Below the pieces are notes generated by a model. That model was not told where the DNA came from and did not search any database. It worked only from the letters and a program-made list of their open reading frames with translations. Both the position numbers and the translations under genes were made by a program. This document shows, one piece after another, positions 1 to 54,084 of a stretch of 64,000 bases of DNA; positions within the stretch are counted from its first letter, which is position 1, and every line of letters starts with the position of its first letter. The stretch lies in the NCBI GenBank assembly GCA_965153355.1, contig OZ231126.1, forward strand, positions 35,650,001 to 35,714,000. The letters run 5' to 3'. The DNA comes from Flaccisagitta enflata. Taxonomy: Eukaryota.

Positions 1-3000
1 AAATGACTTCGAAAATCGTCTTTTGGCTGGGGACATTGCCATGTTATGGCAGGGACGTATGAACCAAGGGCTAAAATTCCTTTTAGTGACTGTTGTTGAT
101 ACCCAAAAAAAATTTCATGACCCTGAGAGCACTTTTTGGGTGTCAAATAACACTTTTTTGGAGACCATAGGACCCGAAAACGCGAAATTTGACAATTTTT
201 GGCCTTTTTTTCAAGTTATAACCTGAAAAAAAGTTGAAATATCGGCCAATTATTTTGCATGCACATGTTATAGACCTTAATAAAGATTAATGAAAAAAAA
301 TTTTTTTGCTAAAAAGATTTCCAGGTACCTAAATTAAGAAAAATTGGGTTTTTCGCGATTTTTTAAATGAAAAAGAATGTTGTTACCCCCCTTAAAGTTC
401 ACCGATTTGGACAAAATTTTTACTGGAGATACTTCACATTATGAAGTACCTCCATGCAAAATTTCATCAAAATCGGAGCACTCTAAGTACCAAAAATTGC
501 TTTCGGAAATCAAAAAATGGAAAAAAATGACTTCGAAAATCGTCTTTTGGCCGGGGCCATCGCCATGTTATGGCAGGAACGTAGGAACCAAGGGCTAAAA
601 TTCCTTTAAGTGACTGTTGTTGATGCCCCCAAAATCGTCTGTTTGTCTACTTGTCCGTTTGTCCGATGGGGCCTTTTCCTGCTCCACCTCCTCGTGGTGG
701 GCCCTGGCTCTGGTCTTTGATATTTGACATATAAAAAAATATGTTTTACTATATCACTGACTACCAAGCGAGCAGATGAAATTATTTTTTTTGGGGGGGC
801 GGAGGATCTCAGTCTATATTTCAAATTTTTTTATTAAAACAAGGCCAGATACACAGCAAGATAGTCGCGGACAATGCAAAAACTCAAAACGGTTAACTTT
901 AAGAGGGGTAAACATTTTTTTCCATAAAAAAAAATGTGAAAATCCCATTCTTTCTTAATTTTGGTGCCAAGAACTTGGTAACAAAAAACATTTAATATAA
1001 GGATTCTTCATTAGGGTCTGTTATGTGTTTATGAGAAACACTTGCCTTATTTCAACTTTGTCTAGGTGATAGCTTGAAAAAAGGGCAAAAAACGTCAAAT
1101 TTCGCGACTTTGGGACCAATGGTCTCCAAAATTTTTTTATTTGACACCCAAAAATTGCTCTCGGGGACATGAAATTTTTTTTGGGCATCAACAACAGTAT
1201 CTAAAAGGAATTTTGGCCCTTGGTTCATACATCCCTGCCATAACATGGCGATGTCTAGGGCAAAAAGACGATTTTCCAAGTCATTTTTTTTCATTTTTTG
1301 ATTTGCGAAAGCAATTTTTGGTACTTAGAGTGCTCCGATTTTTATGAAATTTTGCATGGTAGTACTCCATAATGTAAAGTATCTCCAGTAAAAATTTTGT
1401 CCAAATTGGTGAACTTTAAGGGGGGTAACAACATTCTTTTTCATTAAAAAAATCGCGAAAAACCCGATTTTTCCTAATTTAGGTACCTAGAAATGTTTGT
1501 AACAAAAAAATTTTTTATCATGAATCTTTATTAAGGTCTATTACATGTGCATGCAAAATAATTGGCTGATATTTCACCTTTTTTTAGGTAATAACTTGAA
1601 AAAAGACCAAAAATTTCAAAATTTCGCGGTTTTGGGTCCTACAGTCTCCCAAAAATTGTTATTTGACACTCAAAAAATGCTCTCAGAGTCATGAAATTTT
1701 TTTTTGGGCATCAACAACAGTCCCTAAAAGGAATTTTGGCCCTTGGCTCATACGTCCCTGCCATAACATGGCAATGTCTCCGGCCAAAAGACGATTTTCA
1801 GGTCCTTTTTTTTCCATTTTTTAATTTTTGAAGACAATTTTGGGTACTTAGAGTACTCTGATTTTGATGAAATTTTGCATGGAGGTACTTCGTAATGTGA
1901 AGTATCTTCAGTAAAAATTTTGTCAAAATCGGTGATTTTTAAGGGGGGTAACAACATTTGTTTTCATTTATAAAATCGAAAAAAAACCGATTTTTCCTAA
2001 TTCAGGTATCAATAAATTTTTTTTACCGAAAATTTTTTTTTCATGAATCTTTATTAAGGTCTACTTTATGTCCATGCAAAATTTTTGATTCATATTTCAA
2101 CTTCTTCTTAGGGTTTAACTTGAAAAAAGGCCAAAAATCGTCAAATTTTGTGATTTTGGGTCTGATGGTCTCCAAAAAAGTGTTTTTTGACACCCAAAAA
2201 ATGCTCTCAGGGTCATGAAATTTTTTTTGGGCATCAACAACAGTCACTAAAAGGAATTTTAGCCCTTGGTTCATACGTCCCTGCCATAACATGGCAATGT
2301 CCCTGGCCCAAAGATGATTTTCAAAGTCATTTTTTTCCATTTTTGGATTTTCGAAGACAATTTTGGGTACTTAAAGTGCTCCGATTTTGATGAAATTTTG
2401 CATGGAGGTACTTCATAATGTGAAGTATCTCCAGTAAAAATTTTGTCCAAATCGGTGAATTTTAAGGGGGGTAACAACATTCTTTTTCATTAAAAAAATC
2501 GCGAAAAACCCGATTTTTCTTAATTTAGGTACCTGGAAATCTTTTTAGCAAAAAAATTTTTTATCATGAATCTTTATTAAGGTCTATAATATGTGCATGC
2601 AAAATAATTGGCTGATATTTCAACTTTTTTTTAGGTTATAACTTGAAAAAAGGCCAAAAAATGTCAAATTTCGCGATTTTGGGTCCTACGGTCTCCAAAA
2701 AAAGTGTTATTTGACACCCAAAAAATGCTCTCAGGGTCATGAAATTTTTTTTGGGTATCAAAAACAGTCACTAAAAGGAATTTTAGCCCTTGGTTCATAC
2801 GTCCCTGCCATAACATGGCAATGTCCCCAGCCAAAAGATGATTTTCGAAGTCATTTTTTTCCATTTTTGGATTTTCAAAGACAATTTCGGGTACTTAAAG
2901 TGCTCCGATTTTGATGAGGTACTTCATAATGTGAAGTATCTCCAGTAAAAATTTTGATGAGGTACTTCATAATGTGAAGTATCTCCAGTAAAAATTTTGT

Positions 3001-3300
3001 CCAAATCGGTGAACTTTAAGGGGGGTAATACAATTTTTTTTTCTTTTCAAAATTTGCGAAAAACACGTTTTTTCCATATTTAGGTACCTAAAAAATTTCC
3101 GAGGTTCAAAATTTTTTACATACAACTAAATTAGGGTCTGATACATGTGTGTGCAAAATTTCATGGCTCTACTCCATGTCTAAGATCGGTTTAAGGGCCA
3201 AAAACGGTCAAAAATGGCTAATTTTGGCCATTTTGGGCACTTTTTTGGGGACGTTCGAACTAGCACCTGAAACTGGGTATAATGAACCTGGATCAGTGTT
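1..3300. repeat. Foldback-like element: tandem ~525-bp units in inverted arms (left arm runs off the window)
   Basis: Unit AAATGACTTCGAAAATCGTCTTTTGG...GGCAGGGACGTATGAACCAAGGG recurs at 1 and ~526 forward, and as its reverse complement about four times between ~1050 and ~3240. This explains the repeated near-identical short ORFs. Right boundary approximate. Confidence 0.75.
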
Positions 3301-3617
3301 CCCCAAGGTGATACGCACATTTTAAGACCCAACTTCATAGGTATCAGGGGACTCGCCCTTTTTATGAAGCCCTACAGACCAAACCGCAGACGGATCTGAC
3401 AAAACTTCGCTTTAGTACTATAAAACCCCGCCTGTTTTTCTATTTTCTCTATCTCCTTTTTCCGCCTTCAATTTCCGAGATCTTGCGACAAAAGTCATCC
3501 TCTTAAGATCTTCCCAGGAGCGGCACTCCCCGCTTCATCAAAATATGAACCCCTACAGTCAACCATACCTCTAAACACGTCCCTACCCCTAAGCTGACCC
3601 CTCTTCTACGTTGCCAT

Positions 3618-3681
<64 letters not shown>

Positions 3682-5747: not shown

Positions 5748-8700
5748 TGCTCTTCCTTCGTTTGCCTCCTCATTCTCTTATTCTTCCCACGCGTTCCCTT
5801 CCTCATCATTTATCTATCTTTCGTTCTTTCGTTCTTTCTTTCTTTCCTCTCGCCATTTCTTTTCTTTCCTTTTTGTCGCCATCATCATGCAAATGGACAG
5901 ACAAGAGAGAAATGTCATGATGTCATGACTAAGCGCCTAAGAATCGTTGAGAAAGAAGTTCGTTACTTTACGATTATTGTACTGGATTTTCTTCCTTCGT
6001 TATAAAAGAAGAAGTCAAGTCACACCCACGTTATTGAAGTCTGAAGTCGCAATTGATAGCACGAAGTTTTCATAAACTTAAGTCATCAATCAACTATACC
6101 GACCAGTTTCGTTTCCTTTATTTAATCACTCCCAGCTCATCAGTGTCCTTCTTTCATTCAATCCAGTGGAGACCGTAACCTCACTCACCCGATTTGCAGG
6201 AATGAGGAATGGTTGGATTATTCAAATGCGACCGTTACCCAAAAATCCCGACGAGACTTGTTTTTCACGATGACCGTCAGGTTTCCCCTCACTGACTCCA
6301 AGCGCAGTTATGCAAATCACAGACTTCCTCTGAAACTTCAAATTTTGACCAGTGACGTCTCTATCCCATTTGGCCTCTCTCTCAGTTTTTCTCCGCCACA
6401 TGCACAAGTTGAGCTAGCTGCATTATTTCTAGTCGCAAAAAAAAAAATTGAGTAACGAGGCTAAAAAAGACTCAATCTTGTGTAAAAAAACCTGGGGAAT
6501 CCAACCGTGACATTTTTAGAGCCCTACGTGGGGGCGTTCAGAAACGGCCCCCAAAAAAACACCCAAAAATGGCTATTTTTGGCCAAAATTTGGTACTTAA
6601 ATGGAGGCCAAGTGTTGAATTTCATACTTGGGGACACTTCAAGATGTAAGAGACTAGTAAAACAAGAATCATGATGATTGGGCTATTGTGGGGTACCTAA
6701 AAAGGCACAAAAAGGGCCCCTAAAGCGAAAAATAAATAGTTTTTTTTTCATTGAGGCCATAAAAATTTTTGGAATGCCTTCAAATTTTAAATGGAAGTTC
6801 CTTATAAATACAACTACCATCATGCAAAAATTTGTGGCCCTCCTTAAATGGCTTCATAGGAAAATTTGGCCACAAAAACAAAAAATCGCTAAAAAAAAAT
6901 CAGTTTTTTTAGTTCATTGACCTAAAAACAATATTTTAAGGTCAGGGTACCCCAATTTTTTTTTCTATTTTGCTAATATAAGATGTTTGGAGGTTCCAAG
7001 AAAAATTTCAGGCCATATTTCCAAAAAATGGCTGAGATATGACCATTTTAAGCGATGTGGTAAAAATGGAAAACGCTAAAAATGGTCATTTTTTGTGATT
7101 TTTTTAAACAATTGGGTGCAAAAAGGGGTCCCGTTTATTTTAATTCATAGTTGGGGACCTTACAAGATGTAAGAGATTATAAAAACAGGAATCATGATGA
7201 TGGGACTATTGTGGGGTACCTAAAAAGGCCCAAAAAGGGCCCTTAAAGCGAAAAATATGTAGTTTTTTTTAAATTGTGACTACAAAAATGAATGGAATGC
7301 CTTCCAATTGGAAATAGAAGTTCCTAATAAATGCAACTACCATCATGTAAAAATTTGTGGCCCCTCTTAAATGGCTTCATAGAAAAATTTGGCCACAAAA
7401 ACCAAAAATCGCTCCAAAAAAATCAGTTTTTCTTGTTCATTGACCTAAAAACAATATTTTAAGGTCAGGGTACCCCATTTTTTTTTCTATTTTGCTATTA
7501 TAACATGTTTGGAGGTTCCAAAAAAAATTCAGGACATATTTAAAAAAAATGACCATTTGAAGTGAAAGGGTAAAACTGAAAAACAACGATAATGGCCATT
7601 TTTTGAGATTCATTGAAAACATTTGGTACAAAAAGAGGTCCCAATAGTTTCAATTCATAGTTAGGGACACTTCAAGATGTAAGAGACTAGGAAAACAAGA
7701 ATCATTATGATGGGGCTATTGTGGGGTGTATTGGGGTGGGGGTGTATGGACTGACGGACCGACGGACGGACCGACGGACCGACGGACAAAGCGGGGTGTA
7801 GAGTCGCGTAGCACGCGACTAAAAAGAAATAACCATCCTGTAAACTGAGCCACGAGAGCCAGAGTGTTAACATCCTTTTTATTCAATAAAAATGGAAATT
7901 AACTGTGCTTACTCTGTTAAACAGTAACTGTACAGAGAATAACAAGAAAAACACATAATTTTGAAATAATTGTACAGGGACTGTTTATTTGCTGTGGCCA
8001 GGCCGAGTTGGCGGGTGCTGTATACAGTGTTTCATACAGGGACTAATTCTTGGAGTAGGATTGTAAGGAAGTTATAAGTGGCTGATCTCAGAAAGCCACT
8101 TTTTCAATTTTTCCTTACTCTTTTACAGCAAGAAAACCCAACACAATTTATTTTATGGATCGCTCACATATATCCATCACCAAAAATGACCATTTTTGGC
8201 ATTTTTCAGTTTTACCACGTTGCTTAAAATGGTGATATCTCAGCCATTTTATGAAAGTATGGCCTGAAATTTTTTTTGGAACCTCCAAACATCTTATATT
8301 AGCAAAACATAAAAAAAATTGGGGTACCCTGACCTTCAAATATTGTTTCTAGGTCAATGAACTGAAAAAACTAATTTTTTTGAACAATTTTTGTTTTTTT
8401 TTGGCCTAATTTTCCTATGAAGCTATTTAAGGAGGGCCAAAAATTTTTACATGATGGTAGTTGCATTAATAGGAACTTCCATTTCTTTTTTGAAGGCATT
8501 CCATTCATTTTTGTAGTCACAATGAAAAAAAAAACTATTTATTTTTTGCTTTAGGGGCCCTTTTTGGGCCTTTTTAGGTACCCCACAATAGCCCCATCAT
8601 AATGATTCTTGTTTTCCTAGTCTCTTACATCTTGAAGTGTCCCTAACTATGAATTGAAACTATTGGGACCTCTTTTTGTACCAAATGTTCTCAATGAATC

Positions 8701-9695
8701 TCAAAAAATGGCCATTATCATCGTTTTTCAGTTTTACCCTTTCACTTCAAATGGTCATATCTCAGCCATTTTTTGGAAATATGTCCTGAAATTTTTTTTG
8801 GAACCTCCAAACATGTTATAATAGCAAAATAGAAAAAAAAATTGGGGTACCCTGACCTTGAAATATTGTTTTTAGGTCAATGAACTTTTTGGAGCGAGTT
8901 GGTTTTTGTGGCCAAATTTTCCTATGAAGCCATTTAAGAGGGGCCACAAATTTTTACATGATGGTAGTTGCATTTATTAGGAACTTCCATTTCCAGTTGG
9001 AAGGCATTCCATTCATTTTTGTAGTCACAATTTAAAAAAAACATATTTTTCGCTTTAGGGGCCCTTTTTGGGCCTTTTTAGGTAATACAATAGTGATTCT
9101 GTTTTTATAATCTCTTACATCTTGTAGTGTCCAACTATGAATTAAAATAAACAGGACCCTTTTTGTACCTAATTTTTAAAAAATCACAAAAAATGACCAT
9201 TTTTAGCGTTTTCCATTTTCACCATGTCGCTTAAAATGGTCATATCTCAGCCATTTTTTGGAAATATGGCCTGAAATTTTTTTTGGAACCTCCAAACATC
9301 TTAAACTAGCAAAATAGAAAAAAAAATTGGGGTACCCTGACCTTAAAATATTGTTTTTAGGTCAATGAACTAAAAAAACTGATTTTTTTGGAGCGATTTT
9401 TGGTTTTTGTGGCCAAATTTTCCTATGAAGCCATTTAAGGAGGGCCACAAATTTTTGCATGATGGTAGCTGCATTTATAAGGAACTTCCATTTCAAATTT
9501 GAAGGCATTCCAATAATTTTTTTGGCCTCAATGAAAAAAAAACTATTTATTTTTCGCTTTAGGGGCCCTTTTTGGGCCTTTTTAGGTACCCCACAATAGC
9601 CCCATCATCATGATTCTTGTTTTAAAATTGTGTTAATGTTGGCAATGAGGAAAAAATGGGAAAGACAATAAAAACAATAAAAGACAAACAATGAA

Positions 9696-9804
9696 TTGTT
9701 GTACCTCAGCCGAGGCTTTGGACTCGCAGGAAAAAGGGTAAACAATACATTACCCCTAATCCTGGCCGGTTTAGGCCCCATCACCGTTACCCAAAGTACA
9801 ACAA
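9696..9804 (-). ncRNA. Twister ribozyme, circularly permuted (P5-type), with P1 reduced to GGCC
   Basis: The minus strand reads UUGUUGUACUUUGG G UAA CGGU GAUGG GGCC U^AA ACCG GC [CAGGA..UCCUG] CGAG UCCAAAGC CUCG G CUGAGGUACAACAA. Helices: P5 14 bp, P2 ACCG/CGGU, P3 hairpin, P4 CGAG/CUCG with L4 UCCAAAGC. Pseudoknots: T1 CCA/UGG and T2 GC/GC. The catalytic G (9782) and the U^A site (9773/9772) are in canonical positions. Confidence 0.85.
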
Positions 9805-10085
9805 ATAATAATGAGCAAAAAATACCAAAATTAAGAGAATACAAGAAATTGGAAGAATGAGGCAGCACAAAGTCGGGTCTAGAAATGAACTTAAAGTGAG
9901 GCAAAGAGTGAAGAGGAAGAGGATCAAAAGGATGAGTCTAGGTCAAAAAGAGAGTGGTCAAATAGAACAGAGTCAGATGGACAGAGGTCTTCAATTGGGG
10001 AAGACAGAGGTCCTGAAATGAAATTGAAAGGTGAAAAAACAGGGTTATGAAATGAAATGGAGATCATAGAGAGAAGAACAATTGA

Positions 10086-10193
10086 ATCACATAGATTACA
10101 TAATTCACTAAGTTAACATAGATTACATGATTTACATAGTTTACAATGTTTACATAGTTTACATAGTTTACATAGTTTACATAGTTTACATAA
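10086..10193. repeat. 12 x 9-bp tandem repeat (TTTACATAG consensus) in the retroelement 3' region
   Basis: Direct reading. Confidence 0.9.
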
Positions 10194-10213
10194 ATACAAA
10201 TAAGATTAAAAAT

Positions 10214-10584
10214 ATATAGACCAAAGCTATGTGAATAGACCAATGATCCGTATAGATGAAAAAGAGAGCCTGCTATGTGAATAGACCAAGCCCAGATTTC
10301 CATCAAAATACAAATTGAAATAGTTTACATATTTACAAATACAAATACAAATAGAGATCAGAGCTATGTGAATAGACCAATGATCCGTATAAATGAAAAA
10401 GAGAGCCTGCTATGTGAATAGACCAAGCCCCAATTTCCATCAAAATACAAAATAATAAATATGTACATAAATATATAAATAAATTACAAAATACAAAATA
10501 TAGGTCAAAGCTATGTGAATAGACCAATGACCTATACTGATGAAATTTGAGCCTGCTATGTGAATAGACCAAGCCCAAATTTCA
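10214..10584 (-). other. Array of six predicted RNA hairpins capped by invariant UUGGUCUAUUCACAUAGC
   Basis: GCTATGTGAATAGACCAA at 10226, 10272, 10363, 10409, 10510 and 10555 (+ coordinates). Each copy sits in a 9-15 bp stem, and several stem variants are G-U wobbles only on the minus strand. Confidence 0.8.
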
Positions 10585-10626
10585 CCAAAATACAGTAAAA
10601 ATTTCCTAGATAACTTAGATGTTTAA

Positions 10627-13023
10627 CTAATTTGCTGGCTGAGAAGAAATAGGAGGAGGAATATTCCTAGATATATTTATAAACCATTTATTAAAATCTA
10701 GAGGAATAGCCCATCTTTGAAATTCTGAAATATACTTATTTACTGATTTACAAAATTCCCTTTTCAGCATTCCAAAATTATAACCTCTGCCCAATAAAGT
10801 ATCCAATAAAAATTTGACCCTCTCCTCAAAATCACTCTGATAATTACAAAGTCTCTGAAATCGGATGATCTGACCATAAAAAACTTTATAACAAATCCTT
10901 GAATATAAGTTACTCTCAAGAAAGGGCAGGGAGATAACATGGAATGGAAAAAGATCAGTCTTACAAAAAACCTTAGTAATAATATTTCCTCCTTCTATTT
11001 TCACCTGCATATCTAAAACATTTGCTGCATCTAACTGGTCATTCTCCTGAGTTAAGGATAAACTGGGAGGATAAATATCCTGAGAAATTGTCAAAAAGTT
11101 TCTTAAATTGATTGACGTGCAATCGTCTCGATATCTTCTGAAAAATTTTAAACTTTCCGCTTCATCTCTTGCCCCTGCTTTTACCCTGTTATCAATATAT
11201 TTGAATTCATCTACCATTAGAGAGCAATCTGAAAGCCAACCTGAACTCTTGCCGCCCATAATTACCCCCAAAGTTTGCTTAAAGATATGCCCAAAAGCCT
11301 TTATGTGGGTATTACGGATCAAATAATCAACCATCTCAAGAAATTCACCAACTGAATACACCAGTCCTTCGGAGTCGTTTGCAACCCACCAAGACTTCTC
11401 ATGACCAATCCTTAGAAATCCCATACCACAGTTCTTACTAAGCTTAGCAAGTAACCAATTAATATTAGACATCAGATGATCATGGTCAAAAAGGGTGTAT
11501 AAAGTTGAAAAATCATTGATCGAGATAGTATCAGCGACACCATATGCCAAACTAAACATATCCTTAACTTCAATACTAGTCTGAACATCAAAATAATAAC
11601 GTACACCCGAAAACTCCATATTCTTATTGCACAAATTCCTGAAATGTTCCTTACACATTTTCAAAACACTAGCTACAATCCTATCCAATTTTGAAGTGAC
11701 CGTGCTTACATTTCCCGCTATGTAACGCATCTTAGGTGGATTCTTATGAAATTTCGGAGTTTGATACAAAAGTGCCAGTTTTTCCTCCCTATTGTTGGGC
11801 TCAATCCTAAACTGCAAAAGATCCGTCTTAATTCTCGAAACTATCTCATTCTCTGTGTTTGGTGAAAAACTGTAAGTCTCATTCCCGGGGTTCTCATTAT
11901 TCAGTCCTAACTCTTCAGCCAATTTTAGAAAATAAAATTTCTTGCATGTGAAAGCAAAATTCCCAGCGGCCTTATCTACAACAGTGATAACATACCTATC
12001 CTGAAGCTTCGCTAACTCTGCCTTACATTCCTGACGTGTAAGCACTGGCTGGCTATAACTGGTACCTTCCTTACAAGCCATTAACTTATTACTGAAATTC
12101 CTGAAGAGAGCGCCCTTCCATTTTTTAAAAGCCGTCCGAGAAATTCTGAACTTACCTGACAGTTTCACAACAAAGCTGTCTATTTCCTTTTTCACCTGTG
12201 TCCTGATATTCTCAACGTTAAGATAAGGGTTCTCTCTAAACTTCGTACCAAAAGAGCAAATCCCACGTAGCTGAGGGTCACCAATGATTTCAAGATCACC
12301 AGTGATGATATGTCCAAAACGATCATGTTTAAAGGGCGAATCATCGCATGAACAGTCCATATTCTGGATATCAGCATAAGAAAGACTACCAGTATTTCTC
12401 AAAACTTTATTATAATTTAAAATCTTAGATCCAATAGTCTTTCCAAAGCTATAGATCAGCCGAATATCAACTTTCTCCTTTATGTCAGATGGCAGGTGTT
12501 TCTGCACATCTGAACAGTTGATGATCGAATTAAGATTCACATCACCCATAATCTTATGCAAGAATTTTGCATTCCAAGAAACAGATTCCCTCATACTCTT
12601 TGATGGTTTTACCTTTTGCAAAAAATCTACCCGGGACTTGATAACAAAGCGTAAATTCTCATTCAAAGTTGAAAAATGGGTCGACATGAAAAATCGTTCC
12701 AAATATCTCCTTTGAGTTGAGAAAACTATGTCCTCAATCCCGCGTAAACCAATTGCCTCAAAGAGCAGAGCCAATTCATTTCTGAAATTCAAAAAACTCT
12801 CATCAGTTATGCCACCTCTACGCTTTTTCCTATGCCTGCCATTCCTATGTTTACCTGAACCTTCCTGACAGATATTTACAACTTTATACATATTGTAATC
12901 AACATATCGACCATCCGTAACATTCCCATGCAGACCAAAACCGCTAATCTTATCATTCAATCCTAGAGGATGAGCAGTACGTAGATAGCTAATCCAAAAA
13001 AGTTCTCTTTCAACTCTTCTCTT
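10627..13023 (-). CDS. Naiad-type PLE polyprotein, 5'-truncated: end of GIY-YIG endonuclease, CxC linker, reverse transcriptase
   Basis: The frame stays open upstream of the listed 777-aa ORF, giving KRRVERELFWISYLRTAHPLGLND (GIY-YIG C-terminal E-x-x-W-I...P-x-G-L-N). It continues with DCSCDDSPFKHDRFGHIITGDL (CxC linker), DKAAGN, PKFHKNPPKMRYI, DFSTLY, GVIMGG, RYRDD, LDM and GQIIRF. No internal stop; ends in TAG. Confidence 0.9.
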   Translation of the reverse strand, partial: KRRVERELFWISYLRTAHPLGLNDKISGFGLHGNVTDGRYVDYNMYKVVNICQEGSGKHRNGRHRKKRRGGITDESFLNFRNELALLFEAIGLRGIEDIVFSTQRRYLERFFMSTHFSTLNENLRFVIKSRVDFLQKVKPSKSMRESVSWNAKFLHKIMGDVNLNSIINCSDVQKHLPSDIKEKVDIRLIYSFGKTIGSKILNYNKVLRNTGSLSYADIQNMDCSCDDSPFKHDRFGHIITGDLEIIGDPQLRGICSFGTKFRENPYLNVENIRTQVKKEIDSFVVKLSGKFRISRTAFKKWKGALFRNFSNKLMACKEGTSYSQPVLTRQECKAELAKLQDRYVITVVDKAAGNFAFTCKKFYFLKLAEELGLNNENPGNETYSFSPNTENEIVSRIKTDLLQFRIEPNNREEKLALLYQTPKFHKNPPKMRYIAGNVSTVTSKLDRIVASVLKMCKEHFRNLCNKNMEFSGVRYYFDVQTSIEVKDMFSLAYGVADTISINDFSTLYTLFDHDHLMSNINWLLAKLSKNCGMGFLRIGHEKSWWVANDSEGLVYSVGEFLEMVDYLIRNTHIKAFGHIFKQTLGVIMGGKSSGWLSDCSLMVDEFKYIDNRVKAGARDEAESLKFFRRYRDDCTSINLRNFLTISQDIYPPSLSLTQENDQLDAANVLDMQVKIEGGNIITKVFCKTDLFPFHVISLPFLESNLYSRICYKVFYGQIIRFQRLCNYQSDFEERVKFLLDTLLGRGYNFGMLKREFCKSVNKYISEFQRWAIPLDFNKWFINISRNIPPPISSQPAN

Positions 13024-13945
13024 TCTAGTCTCTTACATCTTGAAGTGTCCCCAACTATGAAATTGAACACTTGGCCACTATTTAAGTACCAAATTTTGGC
13101 CAAAAATACCTAAAAATAGCCATTTTTGGGTGTTTTTTGGGAGCCGTTTCTAAACGCCCCCGCGTAGGGCTCTAAAAATGTCACGGTTGGATTCCCCAGG
13201 TTTTTTTACACAAGATTGAGTCTTTTTTAGCCTCGTTACTCAATTTTTTTTTTTTTTTTTAACGTAGCCCAACTTGTGCATGTGGCGGAAAGTGACCAGT
13301 TTTCACTCGTATTTGATGTCTGGTCGATTGACATTTTCAAACATTTCGCTTGAATCTTTCGTAATCATTCCTCTCATTTTCGAATGAAGATGGATGAAAA
13401 CGAAATGCTGCTTGCATCACCAACACTTTTTTTGCCATCCTCCACTCTTTCAAATCTGTAATTGGAAATAAAAGGGTACTACTGCCTGGATTAAAAAAAG
13501 AAAGATGAAAATTTCTTTCTGATTTAGACAAATCAAGTTTCCGGTTTCTTAAATTGCAGACCCAGAGAAAAAGAAATAAAGATTAGAAACGTGGATTGAG
13601 GAAAACGTTTTTAGCTACCGGGCAAATAATAAAAACTTTCAAAATCTGGTTTTTGAGAAGACGGCACTTAGACGCGATGTGTCTAACGGAAAACTCGCTC
13701 CTGGTCTAGAAATTTCAAAACTCGAAAATTCAAAAAAAGGTGATCCACAAGAAAAGAATGTCGCGAAGAAAGAAAGGAAAGAATAACAAAGGAAGTTGAT
13801 TTATTCTTTTTGTCCTATCATTTCCGATGCGTTCCTTTTCAACAATCAAAAAAATCGGAAGAAAAACATTTTCATTTATCATAAACAACATTCATGATAA
13901 AATCTAATAACATTCATTATAAAATCTACAAATAACTTGTCAAGA

Positions 13946-14589: not shown

Positions 14590-15559
14590 ATGGACAAACG
14601 AAATGCCTACCTGACTGAACTATCTGCTTGACTGCATACCTCATTAGTATAGGCTCATCCTGTTTTGTCTGAGATGTACCTCATATTTAAAGTATAGGGT
14701 GGACTGGCCGATATAGCTATACCATCAAGTATGCATAAAATATTTTACCAATGTTATAATCAAAGACTACGTGTGCACAATCAAAGGACCACCTTAAAGA
14801 AACTCTTTCATAGAGCGCTTTTTGAAAAAAATCAAATTTTTGTTTTATATGATGTATTTGCATCATGTCTAATGATCCTTTGGCATCATATGACATTGGA
14901 CAACATTACATTGCAACCCAAAAAAAACTAAGACAAGGACAAAAGCCTGTGGAGCGTTAACTGGTGTTTAATGCGCACCCATCACAACTATTCTTAGAAT
15001 TATCAAAAATTCCACTTCAACCCTTATCAAAGAGCGGCTCAACAGATACAAATCATGAGCATGAAAAACCTATGATTTTAGGCTATTTATGAACTGTGCA
15101 AGTGACAAGAAAGAGTACCAGATTTGTGTGCTGAATTGTGCCCCCACATTCCTCACACCTTTCTGATCTTCCCATTGTAAAATGCTCATAACATCCATAG
15201 CTTTAAATCAAGATTTTTCTCACCAATTGAGAATAATCCACCAAGTTGTAAACTCTTAGTCAACAGATACAAATTAAGAGCAAGAAAAACCTATATATGT
15301 ATCATATTTGCATCATATGTAGCACACTGGCTTCATATGATGCACTAGCATCATAAGCTAATGCATCATATAATGTATGATGCTAGTGCATCATATGATG
15401 CAAATGCATCATGTTCAACTAAAATGTCATTGTTTTCAAAAAGCGCCCTATGAATGATTTTCTTCTGAATGGTTATTGAATTATACAAACATGAGTTTGA
15501 CATAACTGCAAAAAGACCTAGAGTAATGTCATTCTCATCCTGAATGGTCCCTTAGACAG

Positions 15560-15780
<221 letters not shown>

Positions 15781-15878
15781 AACCCAGTGACACAGACAGG
15801 GTCAAAGGATCTAAACCTGTAGGGAAGAAACAAGCAAATTTGTGGCTGTGCATACTAACGTAGTGATGTGCAGCCCCC

Positions 15879-17193
15879 TTTTTGGGCAGCGGCCCAAAAG
15901 GGGCCGATGAGTATGCTTTCACACAGGGGAAATTTCTCCTCCTCCTTCTTCTCTGTCCACCCCCCTCAAAACTCAAATTCTAGCCTTGAGGCTCAAATTC
16001 TAGCCTTGAGGCCCAAATTCTAGCCTTGAGGCCCGAATTCTAGCCTTGAGGCCCGAATTCTAGCCTGGAGGCCAAAATTCTAGCCTCAAAGCCCAAATTT
16101 CAGCCTTAGAGCCTAAATTTCAGCCTCGAGGCTAAATTTCTAGCTGGCCCAAATTCTAGCCTCAAGGCCCAAATTCAAGTCTTGAGGCCCAAATTCTAGC
16201 CTCAAAGCCCAAATTTTAACCTCAAGGCTCAAATTCCAACCTCTAGGCTCAAATTCTAACCTTGAAGCCCACATCCTAGTCTTGAGGCTCACATCCCAGC
16301 TTTGACGCTCAAACCCCAGCCTCAAGGCTTAAGTAACAGCTTAAAGGCTCAAATCACAGCCTTGTGACTCAAACCACAGCACTATGGTCTGAGAGCACAC
16401 CACCTCAGGACAAGAAAAATTACGGCAGCACTTTGGACCTATATTATAGGAAAAAACTGGTACAGTCGCTTACTGAAAGCAAGAAAATATATGGTTTTAC
16501 CTCCGCCCTAGCTCATCCAAAGCCTCATTTTCCTCCTTGAAGTTAACTACTTTGCTCAAAATTAAATGTTGCAAAAAATGTTTTTTTGGTTTCATTTGTT
16601 ACTTTTCTAGACTTCAAAAATGATACTAAGAATATAAAGGAAGACACAAACTTTTTGAAAAAGCTTCAGGGTGGACTGAACACGACTTGTGTAAAATTTG
16701 GTAACCTTGCTCCCAGATTTGAAGGACCTATAAAAAAAACCCCGCAAATTTGCAAACTAAAATGAAAAAGTTTTTGTCAATTTTCGCGCCTTCAAAATAG
16801 TCAACCTAATGACTTCCTGAGCAAAAAAATGTCCTTAGATGAATCAGGGCGGGGGTAAAACCCTATATAGATGTGATCTAAACATACTAGGGGACATTTG
16901 TATACCATAGCTATCATCCCTAGGTACTGCCTTATAGTTTTGTCTTGGTATGATATGCTCACGGATCTATGTGCACAGCCTTTAGGCTCAAATCAAAGCC
17001 TAACGGCGCAAATTACAGTTTTGAGTCTCAAATCACAACTCAAAGCGCAGATCACAGGCTCACGGCTCAAAACTTACTAAGCATAGGTCATCTGCCCCTT
17101 TGGGGCCGCTGCCCCTCTCACCATCACACATCCACATATACTTAAATAGGGGCAACGGGTACCGCTGACCATCTAACGCTTATGCGACTATTT
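15879..17193 (+). mobile_element. HINE-like element (GGGCAGCGGCCC family) with internal 20-bp minisatellite and nested MITEs
   Basis: Inverted GGGCAGCGGCCC(C)AAAGGGG..ATGCT ends and (TAGCCTTGAGGCCCAAATTC)n at ~15980-16380. A nested TA-flanked TIR element lies at 16492-16863. Relatives occur at 39510-39998 and 48128-48616. Confidence 0.6.
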
Positions 17194-19183: not shown

Positions 19184-21455
19184 TACGTCCCATGAAGCGC
19201 CCCAAACTTCGACACTAACTCTCACCAATCTTACCATAGTTGAGGCTTGGTAAAAAAATATTCCATGTAAAATTTCAGGCCTCTGGAACAGCAGGAACCT
19301 TTGTTAGGGTGACTATGAAGTTTCCATAGAAATCTATGGTAGAGACAAAATTTGCATAATAGAAATATTGATTCCAATGCTAATTTAATACAAACTTCAG
19401 CATCACCCTAACAAAGGTTCCTGCTATCTCAGAGGCCCAAAATTTTGCATGGAATATTTTTAGTCGCGTGCACGCGACTCTACAACCCGCTCTGTCGGTC
19501 GGTCGGTCGGTCCGTCGGTCGGTCGGTCGGTCGGTAACAATTTGCTTTTTTGTGTCGTTTTTGGTCATTTTTGGTTGCTTTTAGTCATTTTTGGTCATTT
19601 TTGGTTGCTTTCAGTCATTTTTGGTCATTTTTGGTCATTTTGGTCATTTTGGTCATTTTGGTCATTTTGGTCATTTTGGTCATTTTTGGTCATTTTTGGT
19701 CATTTGTGATCATTCATAATCATTTTTAATCATTTCTAATCATTTTTAATCATTTTTGATCATTTTTGGTCATTTTTGGTCATTTTGATCATTTTCGTCA
19801 TTTTGGCCATTTTGGTCATTTTGGTCATTTTTGGTCATTTTTGATCATTTTTGATCATTTTTTGATTATTTTGGGTCATTTCAGTTTATTTTTGATCATT
19901 TTTTTTGTCATTTTTGGTCATTTTTGGTCATTTTGGTCATATTGGTCATTTTGGTCATTTTTGATCAATTTTGGTCATATTTAATCATTTTTGGTCATTT
20001 TTGGTCATTTTTGGTCATTTTGGGTCATTTTGGGTCGTTTGGGTCATTTTGTGTCATTTTTGGATATTTCTGGCTATTTTTGATCATTTTTTGTCATTTT
20101 TGATCTTTTTTGATCATTTTTGGGCATTTTGGTCATTTTGGTCATTATTGGTCATTTTTGGTCATTTTTGGTCATTTTTGGTCATTTTTGGACTTTTCAG
20201 GTCATTTGAGGTCATTTTAGGTCATTTTAGGTCACTTTGATCATTTTTGGTCATTTTTGGTCATTTTTGGTCATTTTTGGTCATTTTTGGTCGTTTTTGT
20301 TCATTTTTGTCATTTTTGGTCATTTTTGGTCATTTTTGGTCATTTTTGGTCATTTTTGGACATTTTTGTTCATTTTTGGTCATTTTGGTCATTTTTGGTC
20401 ATTTTTGATCATCTTTGGTCATCTTTGGTCATTTTGGCCATATTGGTCATTTTTGGTCATCTTTGGTCATCTTTGGTCATTTTGGTCATTTTGGTCATTT
20501 TGGTCATTTTTGGTCATTTTTGGTCATTTTTGGTCATTTTGGTTAAAGTCTGCTGGTTAAAGTCTGCTGGTTAAATCTGCTGGTTGAAGTCTGCTGGTTT
20601 AAATCTAATGGTTTAAGTCTGCAGGTCTAATGGTTTAAGTCTGCTGGTTTAAGTCTGCTGGTTAAAATGATATTGAAGATAAGTATGGTTTAAGTCTGGT
20701 TTAAGTCTGGTTTAAGTATGGTTTAAGTCTGGTTTAAGTCTGGTTTAAGTCTGGTTTAAGACTGGTTCATGTCTGATTTATGTCTGGTTTAGGTCTGGGT
20801 TAGGTCTGGTGTATGTCTGGTTTGTGTCTGGTTTTTGTTTGATTTAGGTCTGATTTAGGTCTGATTTAGGTCTGGTTTTGGTCTGGTTTTGGTCTGGTTT
20901 GAGTCTGGTTTGAGTCTGGTTTGAGTCTGGTTTGAGTCTGGTTTGAGTCTGGTTTGAGTCTGGTTTGAGTGGTTTGAGTCTGGTTTGAGTCTGGTTTGAT
21001 TCTAGTTTGAGCCTGGTTTGAGCCTGGTTTGAGCCTGGTTTCGGTCTGGTTTAAGTCTGGTTTGAATCTGGTTTGAGTCTGGTTTGAGTCTGGTTTGAGT
21101 CTGGTTTGAGTCTGGTTTGAGTCTAGTTTGAGTCTGGTTTCAGTCTGGCTTAAATCTGGTTTATGTCTGGTTTATGTCTGATTTAGGTCTGGTTTCGGTC
21201 TGGTTTAATTCCGGTTTGAGTCTGGTTTGAGTCTGGTTTGAGTCTGGTTTGAGTCTGGTTTGGGTCTGGTTTGGGTCTGTTTTGGGTTGCTTTTAAGTCT
21301 GATTTTCGATAAAAAGATACAATAAGGAGTCAGGTCAGTTCAGTTATTTTTGTCCTGCACGCGACTTATAGGTGTTGGCCTTGTTTTACCAAGCCTCAAC
21401 TATGGTAAGATTGGTGAGAGCCATAGTCCAAGTTAGGGGCGCTTCAAGGGACATA
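19184..21455. mobile_element. Palindromic MITE split by a HINE insertion
   Basis: 19184-19460 plus 21386-21455 form an inverted-repeat element. A copy lacking the insertion lies at ~37043-37336. Confidence 0.7.
19461..21385 (+). mobile_element. HINE/DINE-like element with expanded internal satellites
   Basis: Starts AGTCGCGTGCACGCGACT plus (GTCG)n and ends GCACGCGACTTATAGGTGTTGGCCTTGTT, inserted in a T-run. Internal (GGTCATTTTT)n at ~19555-20545 and (GTCTGGTTTRA)n-type repeats at ~20545-21300. Confidence 0.75.
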
Positions 21456-24194: not shown

Positions 24195-24535
24195 TCCGGC
24201 GCCCTAACCAAGTCAGCGCCCGCCGCAAAGCCTCGTCAATTCTTCGTTTTGGAGGGGACGTCTCTCTCTCTGTCTTGCCACTCGTTCACAACAAACCGCG
24301 ACTACCCGATTTGGTCCATCTCTTCGACGGACGAAAGCGAGAAAGCGTCCTTTTCTTCTTCGTCTTCGTCTCGTCAACGAACACGAAGCACCACCTCTAA
24401 AATCATCGCGCAAGGCAACAACACTATTCGTCGAGACTTGTTCCAAATCCATTTTGATCGCGACGATTATATTCTGCGAACAACGAAAGTCACCAGCAAA
24501 CATGCCGGGACTTATTATTGCAACAGAATTAGAAG
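24195..24535 (+). CDS. SUEL-lectin/Ig/Ig receptor, exon 3 (V-type Ig domain)
   Basis: CCAG| acceptor, phase 0. VLEGTSLSLSC..W...HAGTYYC Ig signature. Donor AG|GTTAG, phase 2. Confidence 0.85.
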
Positions 24536-24573
24536 GTTAGTTCGATTTCACATTTATATTTGAGCGTACGTTT

Positions 24574-24644
<71 letters not shown>

Positions 24645-25150
24645 ATTGTTGTTGTTGTTGTTGTTGTTGTTTTTGTTTTGATTGTTGTTGTTGTTTTTGT
24701 TTTGATTGTTGTTGTTGTTTTTGTTTTGATTGTTGTTGTTGTTGCTTTTGTTTTGATTGTTGTTGTTGTTGCTTTTGTTTTGATTGTTGTTGTTGCTTTT
24801 GTTTTGATTGTTGCTTTTGTTTTGATTGTTGTTGTTGCTTTTGTTGTGATTGTTGTTGTTTTTGTTGCTTTTGTTTTGATTGTTGTTGTTTTTGTTGCTT
24901 TTGTTTTGATTGTTGTTGTTGTTGCTTTGTTTTGATTGTTGTTGTTGTTGCTTTTGTTTTGATTGTTGCTGTTGCTGCTGTTATTTTGATTGTTGTTGGT
25001 GCTTTTGTATTTGTTGTTGTTGTTGTTGTTATTGTTGTTGTTGTAGCTTTTGCTTCGATTAGTGTTGTTGTTGTAGCTTTTGCTTTGATTGTTGTTGTAG
25101 CTTTTGTTTTGATTGTTGTTGTTGCTGCTTTTATTTTGATATATGTTGAT
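24574..25150. repeat. (TTG)n-derived intronic low-complexity repeat
   Basis: Direct reading. A similar (ACA)n tract lies at ~25792-26190. Confidence 0.9.
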
Positions 25151-37829: not shown

Positions 37830-40800
37830 TTTTCCAAGCTTTACAGGCCCAGTTTGATGAATAGCAAGTTATGCATATGATGGTTTTTCTCAACACAACA
37901 GCACGAAAGATTCTCAGAAACTGGCGAGTTAGAAAATGGTTACTTTAAAACATCATTCTTGGGGCCAAAGCGAGAAAATGATAAATGTTCAACGATTTTG
38001 CGCGTCTTGACTGTCCGCAAAACGCGCATTCAGGCCAAACCACTCTTGCGTGCGCGTGCGTGCGCGTGGGTGCGAGCGTCGTGCGTGCGTGAAGGGATGA
38101 CAGAAGAGCCATCAGCTGCGGTGGTTGAATGGAATGATAGAAATAAGAAAAGAGGATATATAGGAAGAGAGAAAATAAAGAGGCGGGGAAGAAGAAAGAA
38201 GAGATAAAAAGAAAGTGGGATTGAAGGAGGAAAAAATCGATGATGGTTTCGTTCTGTCCAATTATTACCCAGAAAGGACAGATGGAAGAATCAAATAGAA
38301 TTTGCTTTAAAAGGAAGTGTGTGGACGGATATTGATATTATGTACATATGTAGATTCTTTCAGCCTGGAAGCCGCTTCAGTTCAGAATTAATCATAGAAA
38401 TATTCACTAAATGTTATTTGATTCATGCTGCGATACGATCCGATAAATTAAAGAAGCGTTTGTTGTTAAATGGAATATATAATGAGGAGCAAACCGTCAG
38501 TAACATCAAACACATCCGCGTGTGGGAAAAGCAGGGAGAAATAATCGATATATATATATTGAGTCTTGGCGAAGATGTACCCGTACTGAACCTGCCACAG
38601 TCATTTTATGCTCCAGCAAAATCATCAGCGTAAAAAATCTTTGCCCGGAATTCGAATTCGATCTATTTCTACTTGAGTTATACTTATAGAATAATTAATT
38701 TCAGCCAGATGTTTTTGGGCAGGAATGCTCAATGCTAAAACATTTGTCAAGGATGGTAATCGATATTCAGCTTTAGCTGACCTAAACGTTTCCACTTACA
38801 ACACTCCCTGGTTAGATCAGAGTGATGATTACAGTGGCTCTCTTTCAATGCTACACTAACCTGTTTCTTTTGACTTGCCGGCGCGACTCTTCTCGGCGTA
38901 AAGTCACGCCTACGTTTCCGGCCGAGTGCGGGATTGGCATATTCGCGCGAATTTAATGGACTCTCAAATGGGAAATCGGGTTCTGCGCGTGTCACCAAGA
39001 CAGCTTCAGATAAGAATACAACACAAACTTCTCTCTCTTTTCATTTCATCGAGAGGTCTTTTCTTTTTCATTTGTTCTTTCAATGGCTTTTAAATTCCAG
39101 TGACATCTGCCAAAGTAATCAAGAGTCGTATGAAGGTACAGTTGAACCCCGCTGTAACGGACCCGCCACGAACTGAATTCCGCCTAGTATAGTAAATGCA
39201 AATTATAGTCCCTTCAGTTTGTTTCTTTTTATTTCTGTATAAGATTTTTAAGTTTTTTGAAATCCGCGAAATGTTAAAGGGCCGCTGGCGACAAGTTTCA
39301 ATTCCGTCATGGTTTTAAGCCCGACAGGGTTTATAACTTTTTCAAAAAATTTTTTTTTAACATAGTTGTTCCAGCCTATATTGATAAATCTTACCCCAAT
39401 CATGCTTTTGGGCAGCGGCCCAATGACCTATGATTCCACACAGGTCAATTTTTACGATCTGATGTTTTTTCCTCGTCCCCCCACACCTCAAATCAGGCCT
39501 CTCAGAGCCAAAATAGTCGCAAAAGCGTTAGATGGTCAGCGGTACCCGTGCCCTGCTTAGGTAAGTCATGATTGTAGTTGAGGGTGGGAGCAGGGCAGCG
39601 GCCCCAAAGGGGTCGATGACCTATGCTTTCACACAGGGGAATATTCTCCTCCTTCTACTCCTCCTCCGTCCTCCCTCCCCCAACCTCCAGGCCCAAATTT
39701 CAGCCTCGAGGCCCATATTCCAGCCTGGAGGCCTAAATCGCAGTCTTGAGGCCCAAATCCCTTGAGGCTGGAATTTTGACCTTGAAGATGGAATTTTGGC
39801 CTAAAGATGGGATTTGGGCCTTGAGGTTGAGATTTGGGCCTTAAGACTGGGATTTGGGTCTCAAGGCTGGGATATGAGCCTCGAGGCTGAGATATGGGCC
39901 TGGAGGTTGGGGGTGGGCGACGAAGAAGGAGGAGAAGAAGGAGAAAATTGCCCTGTGTGAAAGCATAGGTCATCAACCCTTTCGGGGCCGCTGCCCAAGT
40001 AGACCTCTCAGACCCAAAATCTGGCCTCTCAGACCCCAAATTAGCCTTCTTAGAGCCCAAACTAGGCATCTTAGGCGGTCAGGCTTCAAATCAAGCCTCT
40101 CCAATCCCAAATCAGGCTATTAGGAACCCAGATTAGGCCTCTCAGACCAAAAATCGAGACTCTTGGACCCCAAATCAGGCCTCTCAGATCAGAAATCTGG
40201 TCTTTCAGACCCCAAATAAGGCCTCCCAGACCCAAAATCAGGCCTTTAGGACTCCAAATCAAGCCCAAATCATTTCTCTCCCACCTTAAATCAGTATGTC
40301 TGGACCCCACAAGCCTGTGTGGAAACATAGGTAATTGGCCTCTCTGGGGCCGCTACCTTATTACCTCAGCAACACATCAATTATGGAGGTCAATGGGGGC
40401 CTATTTCTCCTGTTTTTAGTTGCGGACACGCAACTCTATAAGAGGCTTTGTCCGTCCGTTGGTCCATCCGTCTGTTGGTCCGTCCATCCAAGGAGATCGA
40501 TAGATATTGACCTCAGATCCTAAATCTGAGTCCTTGTGAATTTCCTTATTTTCCATTTACATGGGGCCGGTCTGAGGGTAGTAAAGGCATGGGTTCTAGC
40601 TTGAATTTGGTCCTGAAAGATACCTTGGCGTATGCACATAACTCTGTTAATCTCATTGACCAAAATTTTGAACTTCTTAGGGGCCCCTAGGGGCCCCCAA
40701 AAAAGCCCTTAATGAGGATATTTTTTTGAAAAAAAAGTGGGGTGCAATTGATAGGAAATTGCTTGATTCGCCTAGATCCAAAATCTTGTAATTTCACTTT

Positions 40801-53008: not shown

Positions 53009-54084
53009 CGTTGTCGTTGTTGTTCAGAATACGACATATAACTGACTGGCTTCTTTTGATGTTCATATCCACGAACGGCTCGCGGCTTTGCTATCTTTCT
53101 CTATTTCCGAATTTATCTAAAATATTTGTGCAGCTAATGCAAAACACAACCCATCTATAAAATACATTTATTCGGCTTCATGCAGGAAAAAATCCAGTGA
53201 AAACATATCATAATGACATCATAAATATGATTGACGTGGGAAAACTATTTTTTACTTGCTTTATTGCAGGCAACAAAACATTTTCGACATTTCTCACTTG
53301 TATTGAACTGTCATACATCGCTGGTATCCCGCTTAACGTGTTTCAGTATCAGATTAGTATTTTGCATGTTTCAATCTAAAATCCTAAATAAACATCGGTA
53401 ATCAGTTATTTTGCGGCTATCTTTATAGGCCTGAAGCGCGCATGCACGGCAACTGCAACTGCACCATCAGTGACCCAACGGCATGATGACAGTTTGGAAA
53501 AAATGAATGTATATATAAAGGTAATTTATTACTTTGGAAAAGATAAGCATGATATCATTCACAGATTATCACAGATAGGAATGGTACATTACATTTCCCT
53601 CATCAACATAACTAAGGCTAGGGCAAAACCTTGCTGTTGAGCGCCATAGGAAAAAAGCATAGTTTTTACTGTATCAACCATGCCCCCAGATAAAAGTCAT
53701 GTAATAACGGATTAACCATTGCTGCCTCACTGCTGGCAAAGTTTTCGACATTTCTTGACAATTCGTGACTTGAAGGCGTCATAAGATCAGGTTTTCGATG
53801 CGAAAGTTCTCCCGTGTTGCATCTCGAGCGCGTTCTGCGATCCTCTAGCTTGCCTCACTTGCTGCTGCAGTTCGAGAGCTTCAGCAAGTTGCTGTTGGGC
53901 GTCGAGAAGATGCTGATGAGCGTCCAGCGTCTGTGCGCAAATAATTGACAATAAATGTCAGAAGATTGAAATCCGATTTAATGAAAAATAGATAGGCAAT
54001 GATACTACGATATAAACCTCCCAAAGAGATCAGCGTTTTAAAACAAAAATCTAAAAAGAGTATGGGTCCGCGACTAGGGTCTAT

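Follow-up and report, generated by a model that had tools for sequence, protein, structure and literature searches.

A twister-like RNA motif lacking P1 near the 3' end of a Naiad-type Penelope-like element, a candidate self-cleaving ribozyme of one Naiad subfamily

The 64,000-nucleotide stretch of Flaccisagitta enflata contig OZ231126.1 analysed here (positions 35,650,001 to 35,714,000, referred to as the window at its full length) contains, on the minus strand at 9804..9696, a twister-like motif in the 3' untranslated region (UTR) of a Naiad-type Penelope-like element (PLE). Among retrotransposons, Penelope-like elements stand closest to telomerase. Judging from its sequence, the motif is probably, at a moderate level of confidence, a selectively maintained twister-class ribozyme of type P5 that lacks the P1 helix and is part of the 3' UTR in one Naiad subfamily; cleavage is predicted. 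This reading is based on the segment layout and its pairing, the rarity of the layout by chance, the position of the motif on the sense strand of a clean-ended insertion, and the pattern of depth and variation among copies. A first-pass annotation of the DNA letters had proposed a complete twister that processes the RNA of its lineage.

Layout of the motif and likeness to published twisters

Read 5' to 3' on the minus strand, the 109-nt motif (9696..9804) follows the type-P5 order, as traced from segment layout and pairing. It opens with the 5' strand of P5, UUGUUGUACUUUGG (9804-9791), which pairs with 9709-9696 through 14 bp, three of them G-U, with pair probabilities of 0.42-1.0. The junction GUAA (9790-9787), counterpart of the 3' side of L2, leads into P2' (CGGU, 9786-9783), which forms four Watson-Crick pairs with P2 (ACCG, 9770-9767). 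The following GA (9782-9781), in which G9782 corresponds by position to the conserved guanine of the published GAGGG segment, precedes T1' (UGG, 9780-9778), complementary to the CCA of L4. Next comes GGCC (9777-9774), a 4-nt palindrome at the position of P1 that is too short for a hairpin. L1, U^AA (9773-9771), stands directly 5' of P2, and the predicted scissile bond, U9773/A9772, is placed by position against the L1 column of Table 1 in Liu et al. 2021. L2 is GC (9766-9765), for which a T2 pairing with the GC of L4 at 9716-9715 is possible, and is followed by the 38-nt P3 hairpin (9764-9727), with 5 + 8 bp (13 bp, one G-U), a 2x2 internal loop and an 8-nt loop. P4 (CGAG/CUCG, 9726-9723 with 9714-9711; 4 bp) closes the 8-nt L4, UCCAAAGC (9722-9715), of the form U-CCN-AAGC. 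One unpaired G (9710) separates the 3' strand of P4 from the 3' strand of P5 (9709-9696), which pairs back to 9804-9791. All segments listed under the first-pass claim that every twister element is present are found at these minus-strand coordinates, but P1 is reduced to just four nucleotides and makes no helix.

By complementarity, both pseudoknots can pair, T1 through U-A, G-C and G-C (CCA/UGG) and T2 through G-C and C-G. The change of CCC to CCA in L4 is answered by GGG to UGG in T1', so that T1 keeps its three pairs; the compensatory change noted earlier is thus borne out. By position, G9782 is the putative catalytic guanine and A9772 would lie at the active site.

The seven Schistosoma mansoni twisters tabulated by Liu et al. 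2021 (PMC8501958) provide the closest template for this layout. Their L1 reads UAA once and AAA or UCA in the six other rows, followed by a 4-nt P2, L2 GC, a P3 hairpin, P4, L4 GUCCCAAGC (in one row GUUCCAAGC) and P4'; the second half consists of L2 GUAAA (also GUGAA and AUAAA), P2', L1 GAGGG and P1. Rotated to open at P5, the motif matches these rows segment by segment, and the GA conserved 3' of P2' is, by position against them, G9782 A9781. The likeness to a type-P5 twister includes the segment order, L1 U^AA, the 4-bp P2, L2 GC, the optional P3, P4, the 8-nt L4 U-CCN-AAGC, GA followed by the T1 partner, and the two possible pseudoknots. The differences are GGCC in place of P1, T1 as CCA/UGG rather than CCC/GGG, GUAA rather than GUAAA, a long P3 (38 nt), a long P5 (14 bp) and the lack of any Rfam twister score. 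According to a review of the class (PMC5408937), the class comprises types P1, P3 and P5, the helices P3 and P5 are optional, and the guanine at the active site is highly conserved.

Chance expectation and strand

A core descriptor was built from the segment layout of the published twisters (Liu 2021 Table 1). It contains 11 fixed letters (U...AAGC in L4, AA in L1, GC in L2, and GA) and demands full pairing of P4, P2 and T1, with 0-60 nt for P3 and the linker and with the two halves in either order; P5 is not required. In the 128,000 strand-bases of the window it gives one match, at the motif site. By arithmetic estimate, its chance expectation is ~0.005 per window before P5 is taken into account, and a 14-bp P5 at the exact junctions is estimated to lower this by a further five to six orders of magnitude or so. 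The P4 core, at up to three mismatches, is found at a single place in the window; a 22-mer taken from the core has no exact match in either the genome contigs or the viral contigs.

A chance resemblance, in which an ordinary AT-rich hairpin cluster of a 3' UTR happens to fit a loose twister template, would be in line with the single copy in hand, with the blindness of the Rfam models to the motif, and with the arithmetic estimate that the core descriptor alone should be matched tens of times per gigabase genome. Set against this are the complete absence of matches in 40,000,000 strand-bases simulated from the dinucleotide statistics of the window, compared with one in 128,000, and the closure of the motif by a 14-bp P5 at exactly the right junctions. 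The location close to the 3' end of a PLE and on its sense strand, the confinement of the listed variation to P3 and the depth peaks over the arms (see below) point in the same direction. Coincidence is therefore highly improbable, and the motif is almost certainly not a chance match.

The two strands fold differently. The minimum free energy (MFE) of the minus strand is -46.9 kcal/mol (z -4.48; none of 200 shuffles equally good), compared with -34.3 (z -2.95) for the plus strand. Four G-U pairs become A-C mismatches on the opposite strand, which gives the structure its strand specificity and agrees with the earlier remark that the wobbles work on one strand.

Host element

The motif is contained in a 5'-truncated Naiad-type copy of 3,400 bp (9625..13024, minus strand), delimited by an empty-site paralogue and a drop in depth. 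The paralogue (reverse complement of 6700..6610) reads through the junction without a break, with the left flank running to 9624 and the right flank starting at 13025; it thereby sets the insertion limits at 9625..13024, indicates that there is no target-site duplication and places the truncation inside the endonuclease domain. In the alignment of the paralogue within the window, 6582-6742 against 9540-9624 plus 13025-13100, no target bases are duplicated or deleted. Summed contig depth falls from 380,445 in bin 9600-9624 to 13,148 in bin 9625-9649, and loose contig ends behind 9623/9624 carry right-flank sequence (13025 onward). With the element end at 9625, 71 nt separate the motif from the 3' end of the element; this tail downstream of the motif occupies 9625..9695 (minus strand). 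The stop codon (10627-10629) lies ~822 nt before P5, so that the ~820 nt and ~70 nt first given for the two distances were accurate. As the motif is inside one clean-ended insertion and on the strand of the open reading frame (ORF), it was carried on the RNA that was reverse-transcribed.

The ORF (10627..13024, minus strand) is uninterrupted and encodes the last part of the GIY-YIG domain, a CxC linker and the reverse transcriptase (RT) with DKA, with ~180 N-terminal residues missing; from stop to stop the frame has 801 codons (10627..13032, minus strand). The protein was not recognised by Pfam, and 97 homologues were found at E<=0.001. In six of six full-length homologues tested with Pfam, GIY-YIG falls within residues 32-203 of 939-1024 and is thus N-terminal, whereas the window copy, truncated at 13024, retains just the end of this domain. 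C227 and C229 (CxC) and D353 K354 A355 (VVDKA) are invariant in an alignment of 12 sequences, and both CxC and DKA in place of DKG are diagnostic of Naiads (Craig et al. 2021, PMC8557442). On these sequence features the host is a Naiad-type PLE, as first supposed.

The absence of canonical hammerheads from Naiads, stated in the first-pass annotation, is indeed reported by Craig et al. 2021 (PMC8557442). Likewise, no hammerhead was found in Rfam scans of the window (gathering thresholds; E<=1), and CUGANGA occurs there twice, both times in coding sequence and not in the 3' UTR. The present element further resembles the Naiad clade in the N-terminal GIY-YIG of its full-length homologues, in CxC, in DKA for DKG and in having very many copies in marine invertebrate-type data. 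The ribozyme-like motif is an addition to this picture, 'twister' not being mentioned in the available text of PMC8557442. The 3' region is not repeated upstream, so that the copy is a single insertion with no pseudo-long terminal repeat (pseudo-LTR) or partial tandem, a property of this copy and not of the family. About three tandem units of ~140 nt each (10181..10594, minus strand; 82-83% identity by self-BLAST) occupy the 3' UTR between the ORF and the motif.

Copies in sequencing data

Four data sets were mapped on 9400-10140 at >=85% identity: a DNA contig set of organism A (X2), marine metagenome DNA contigs (X1), metatranscriptome contigs (X7) and poly-A RNA raw reads (X24). Summed contig depth, which is not equal to copy number, peaks over the arms of the motif, with 41,633 in X2 and 626 in X1 for bin 9700-9724, 49,808 and 240 for bin 9750-9774, and 42,408 and 574 for bin 9775-9799. 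The P3 bin, 9725-9749, stands at 14,941 and 182. In the upstream UTR (bins 9825-9899) the values are 2,073-3,655 in X2 and 22-39 in X1, and in the tail (bins 9625-9699) 8,924-13,148 and 68-199. In summed contig depth, the motif arms are thus many-fold deeper than the adjoining UTR in both sets.

All five variant sites listed inside 9697-9804 fall in P3: three in its loop (9746, 9747 and 9748), 9756 C>T and an insertion after 9739. The substitution at 9756 is the majority form in X2 (17,471/25,122) and turns a G-U pair into A-U, so that the pair is kept. The tail is more variable among copies; one RNA-library contig has eight listed differences at 9673-9696, seven of them in the tail, 9696 being the last nucleotide of P5. 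Taken from contig summary tables, the depth and the variants listed suggest constraint on the core of the motif. In X24, none of the reads from ~6% of the run matched 9400-10140, a result with no bearing on expression or cleavage.

The depth profile also bears on a different explanation, namely that the motif is part of a separate and far more abundant short module, such as a non-autonomous element's 3' end or a common 3' cassette, attached to various upstream sequences including this Naiad. Such a module would account for the many-fold excess of arm depth over the adjoining UTR in X2 and X1, for the absence of the motif from related Naiads (see below) and for three joints, 9794>9928, 9804>9904 and 9807>9897 (in the last of which 76 other letters intervene), which swap the upstream flank at the 5' edge of P5. 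However, 9625..13024 is a single clean-ended event with the motif inside it, on the ORF strand and 71 nt from the 3' end. A better-conserved segment will, at >=85% identity, gather more contigs even if it is not an element of its own, depth being different from copy number. The module explanation is therefore considered quite unlikely, and it would in any case be compatible with the motif being an active ribozyme.

Observations weighing against a twister ribozyme

Several observations speak against a twister ribozyme at this site, in addition to the limit on reading depth as copy number given above. The most evident is the replacement of the P1 helix by GGCC alone between T1' and U9773; P1 is counted among the three consensus stems called essential, 'typically at least two base pairs', and cleavage without P1 has been called inefficient (Liu et al. 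2021, PMC8501958). The junction GUAA is one nucleotide shorter than the GUAAA, GUGAA or AUAAA found in 7/7 published rows. One RNA-library contig (X7) runs across the motif uncut, although contigs cannot reveal RNA ends.

The covariance models are silent as well. A match to the Rfam twister models had been put forward as a check of the motif, and none of them matches it. At gathering thresholds the whole window gives 0 matches; at E<=10, the 301 nt of 9600-9900 give five matches, none of them to twister, and the 113 nt of 9694-9806 give three unrelated matches, the weakest at 8.4 bits, which leaves any twister score below roughly 8 bits. A plausible explanation of this silence lies in the lack of a P1 hairpin, in the length of P3 (38 nt) and in the blindness of covariance models to pseudoknots. 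R1, a covariance model made from the motif sequence alone, scores the motif itself at 137 bits and the palindromic tandem repeats at 56-57 kb at up to 36 bits; since it mainly collects such repeats, it is not discriminating.

Folding without pseudoknots also disfavours the twister helices. The nested energy model, which excludes pseudoknots and tertiary contacts, gives an MFE of -46.2 kcal/mol compared with -42.2 for the nested twister helices, and P2 and P4 have pair probabilities of 0-0.01. In the nested MFE structure, T1 forms and the GGCC at 9777-9774 pairs with the GGCC at 9767-9764.

These observations are the main arguments for a further explanation, in which the motif is a structured element of twister origin or twister shape whose cleavage was lost or never existed, and which is kept for some other function of the 3' UTR structure, such as recognition of the RNA 3' region by the RT, or RNA stability. 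The missing P1, the junction one A short and the silent Rfam models are all in keeping with such an element, as is the nested MFE, in which pairing of GGCC with 9767-9764 hides P2 and T2. Furthermore, 148 nt beyond the predicted cut are kept in integrated copies, meaning that the RNA that was copied was uncut there, and the site is spanned by the RNA-library contig. On the other hand, all 11 fixed letters of the Liu 2021-derived descriptor are present (our own template, and not the conserved list of the review), and both pseudoknots can pair, with T1 compensated, which would be needless for a mere protein-binding hairpin. Although P1 is phylogenetically conserved, it is dispensable according to the review, a 'mini-twister' without it cleaving at almost the wild-type rate (PMC5408937). 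In integrated copies of canonical PLEs, too, the hammerheads are found upstream of the 3' end (PMC8557442, PMC4209133). With P1 dispensable in the review and its loss inefficient in Liu et al., the missing helix weakens the family membership and is compatible with catalysis. A non-cleaving element is, on balance, possible but rather unlikely.

As a separate observation from the same scans, the whole window at Rfam E<=1 gives 98 matches, all noise of the hairpin or microRNA (miRNA) type, mostly to palindromic repeats at 56-58 kb, and no ribozyme. The repeats form tandem arrays at 56200-57700 and 58050-58765, with units built on CCCTGGTTAACCAGGG, and produce dozens of spurious sub-threshold matches to miRNA and small RNA models. 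A near-perfect long hairpin at 39650-39942 reaches 98.8 bits with the plant MIR7533 model on both strands (gathering score 230); it is probably an inverted-repeat element and not a miRNA gene.

Related Naiad loci

A protein scan of metagenome data returned 12 loci with Naiad ORFs, 11 of them at 49-69% protein identity and one at 25%; the same scan of viral contigs and genome contigs found no relative. The motif is not recovered from these loci, which adds to the points against the favoured reading: the strict descriptor matches 0/12, the relaxed descriptor gives two weak AT-rich matches, both in coding DNA, the best R1 score is 14.3 bits (E 0.49), and Rfam returns nothing relevant. The best-scoring R1 candidate (L004 2832-2946) was rejected, the twister letters being missing on inspection.

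Past their UTRs, L004 and L005 enter dinucleotide microsatellites and L001 a CT-rich tract; these three loci probably include their 3' ends, and the other nine contigs may end too early to show the motif. Given that it is missing even from loci that apparently reach the 3' end, the motif belongs to one subfamily and not to Naiads generally. The initial statement that this lineage uses a twister was consequently too broad.

Regarding the UTRs themselves, the ~140-nt tandem units of the window copy have recognisable matches in the 3' UTRs of L008 (1277-1412), L010 (1163-1213) and L001 (2562-2675), and the remaining UTR is not shared. The more distant Naiads L004 (2690-2975) and L005 (1880-2010) have short conserved 3' UTR blocks in common, followed by (CT)n microsatellites. 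Naiads have been described as biased toward (TA)n (Craig et al. 2021, PMC8557442).

Proposed mechanism

In the favoured reading, that of a P1-less type-P5 twister, the sense transcript would fold into a double-pseudoknot structure held by T1 (CCA/UGG) and T2 (GC/GC), and cleavage between U9773 and A9772 would leave a 2',3'-cyclic phosphate and a 5'-OH. Its role would be that ascribed to the hammerheads of other PLEs, namely to cut precursor RNA, whether read-through or tandem (pseudo-LTR), close to the 3' end; the position of the motif near the 3' end and on the sense strand parallels that of these hammerheads. In a tandem or pseudo-LTR setting, the upstream motif would trim 5' read-through and the downstream motif would cut 148 nt before the element end. 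As the insertion keeps the 148 nt past the cut site, the RNA that was copied must have been uncut at the 3' motif, so that cleavage, if it occurs, would be partial or conditional; this applies equally to the hammerheads of canonical PLEs. Partial cleavage would fit a P1-less ribozyme whose alternative nested fold is 4 kcal/mol more stable than the nested twister helices.

A more specific version of this mechanism is suggested by PLE hammerheads. Minimal hammerheads reside in PLE pseudo-LTRs; beside the cut, their helix is reduced to a short stem capped by a small palindromic loop, and dimeric action has been proposed for them (Cervera and de la Pena 2014, PMC4209133). The Naiad motif shares with them the host superfamily, the strand, the position near the 3' end or pseudo-LTR and the reduction of the cut-site helix to a few palindromic nucleotides. 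It differs in belonging to an unrelated ribozyme class and in the absence of a pseudo-LTR from this copy, and dimer action is for the Naiad motif a hypothesis. According to it, the twister would replace the minimal hammerhead in this Naiad lineage and work in the same way, GGCC palindromes pairing between RNAs or tandem copies. The resulting domain-swapped dimer would share an intermolecular 4-bp P1 with an active site at each end, and cleavage would be confined to multimeric or tandem precursors. The unit-length product, carrying the 5'-OH and the cyclic phosphate, might then be circularised by ligation and serve as template for rolling-circle reverse transcription. Such a cycle would account for the sequence beyond the cut site in integrated copies and for the partial tandems of PLEs. 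The two-copy cofold reaches -100.8 kcal/mol, compared with 2 x -46.2 for the separate copies. The predicted register joins UGGG to CCUA across the cleavage site and not GGCC to GGCC. By avoiding the palindromes, the cofold lends no specific support to the dimer P1, and the dimeric mode of action is regarded as unlikely.

Neighbouring repeats

Outside the element, a high-copy host repeat flanks the insertion at 9174..9624 and resumes at 13025-13289. A very abundant family of short repeats is represented at 9174-9635, 6647-7108, 195-634, 1177-1585, 1700-2137 and 2223-2662, with direct and inverted copies around the Naiad insertion and a summed contig depth of 100,000 to >1,000,000 in X2. The window is also rich in satellites, with long tandem arrays at 60143-62000, 53968-54800, 20556-21300, 24469-25100 and 15520-15980; their periods are 39, 13, 11 and ~9-15 nt, and a (GA/CT)n tract is present in addition.

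Ribozymes of other retroelements and significance

Twisters are already known from retrotransposons of another type. T-variant twisters occur at the 5' end of Schistosoma mansoni's Perere-3/RTE non-LTR retrotransposons (PMC8501958), and 'truncated' twisters of RTE elements have been described (PMC7761336). The Naiad motif resembles the T-variants in being of the twister class on the sense RNA of a retrotransposon, in having a P1 that is weak or not encoded by the element, in near-identical core letters and in being detected by a descriptor rather than by a covariance model. The T-variants, however, are of type P1 and lie at the 5' end of a long interspersed nuclear element (LINE), where their cleavage sets the RNA 5' end and permits translation, whereas the Naiad motif is of type P5 and lies in the 3' UTR of a GIY-YIG Penelope-like host, 71 nt short of its 3' end.

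The pairing of a twister with a Naiad appears to be undescribed, as first suspected: no link between twisters and PLEs or Naiads was found in the full-text literature searched, although a copy of the motif may be present, unannotated, in the published supplementary lists of twister sequences. In particular, none is made in the available text of PMC6765202, PMC7761336, PMC13725137, PMC10085705, PMC8501958, PMC5408937, PMC5680766, PMC7229834 or bioRxiv 10.64898/2026.07.22.740005. If the favoured reading is true, this would be the first case in that literature of a twister linked to a PLE, and a natural type-P5 twister without P1. Scans with covariance models miss such variants, and ribozymes in retroelements regarded as ribozyme-less may thus be under-counted.

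The finding also bears on what ribozymes do for their hosts. Craig et al. 2021 (PMC8557442) remarked that Naiads thrive without canonical hammerheads, and suggested that hammerheads may be no more than parasites of PLEs. If the dimeric mode were true, two unrelated ribozyme classes would have converged on the design of a palindrome for a closing helix within one retroelement superfamily, and such convergence would make ribozyme cleavage integral to the PLE life cycle and not parasitic. In bacteria, hammerhead and twister share gene neighbourhoods, and the same inference has been drawn there, that self-cleavage is what is selected (review PMC6765202). By the same reasoning, the occurrence in a high-copy Naiad subfamily of a twister-class motif at the same place and on the same strand would, if the favoured reading holds, suggest selection on self-cleavage and not on one ribozyme class.

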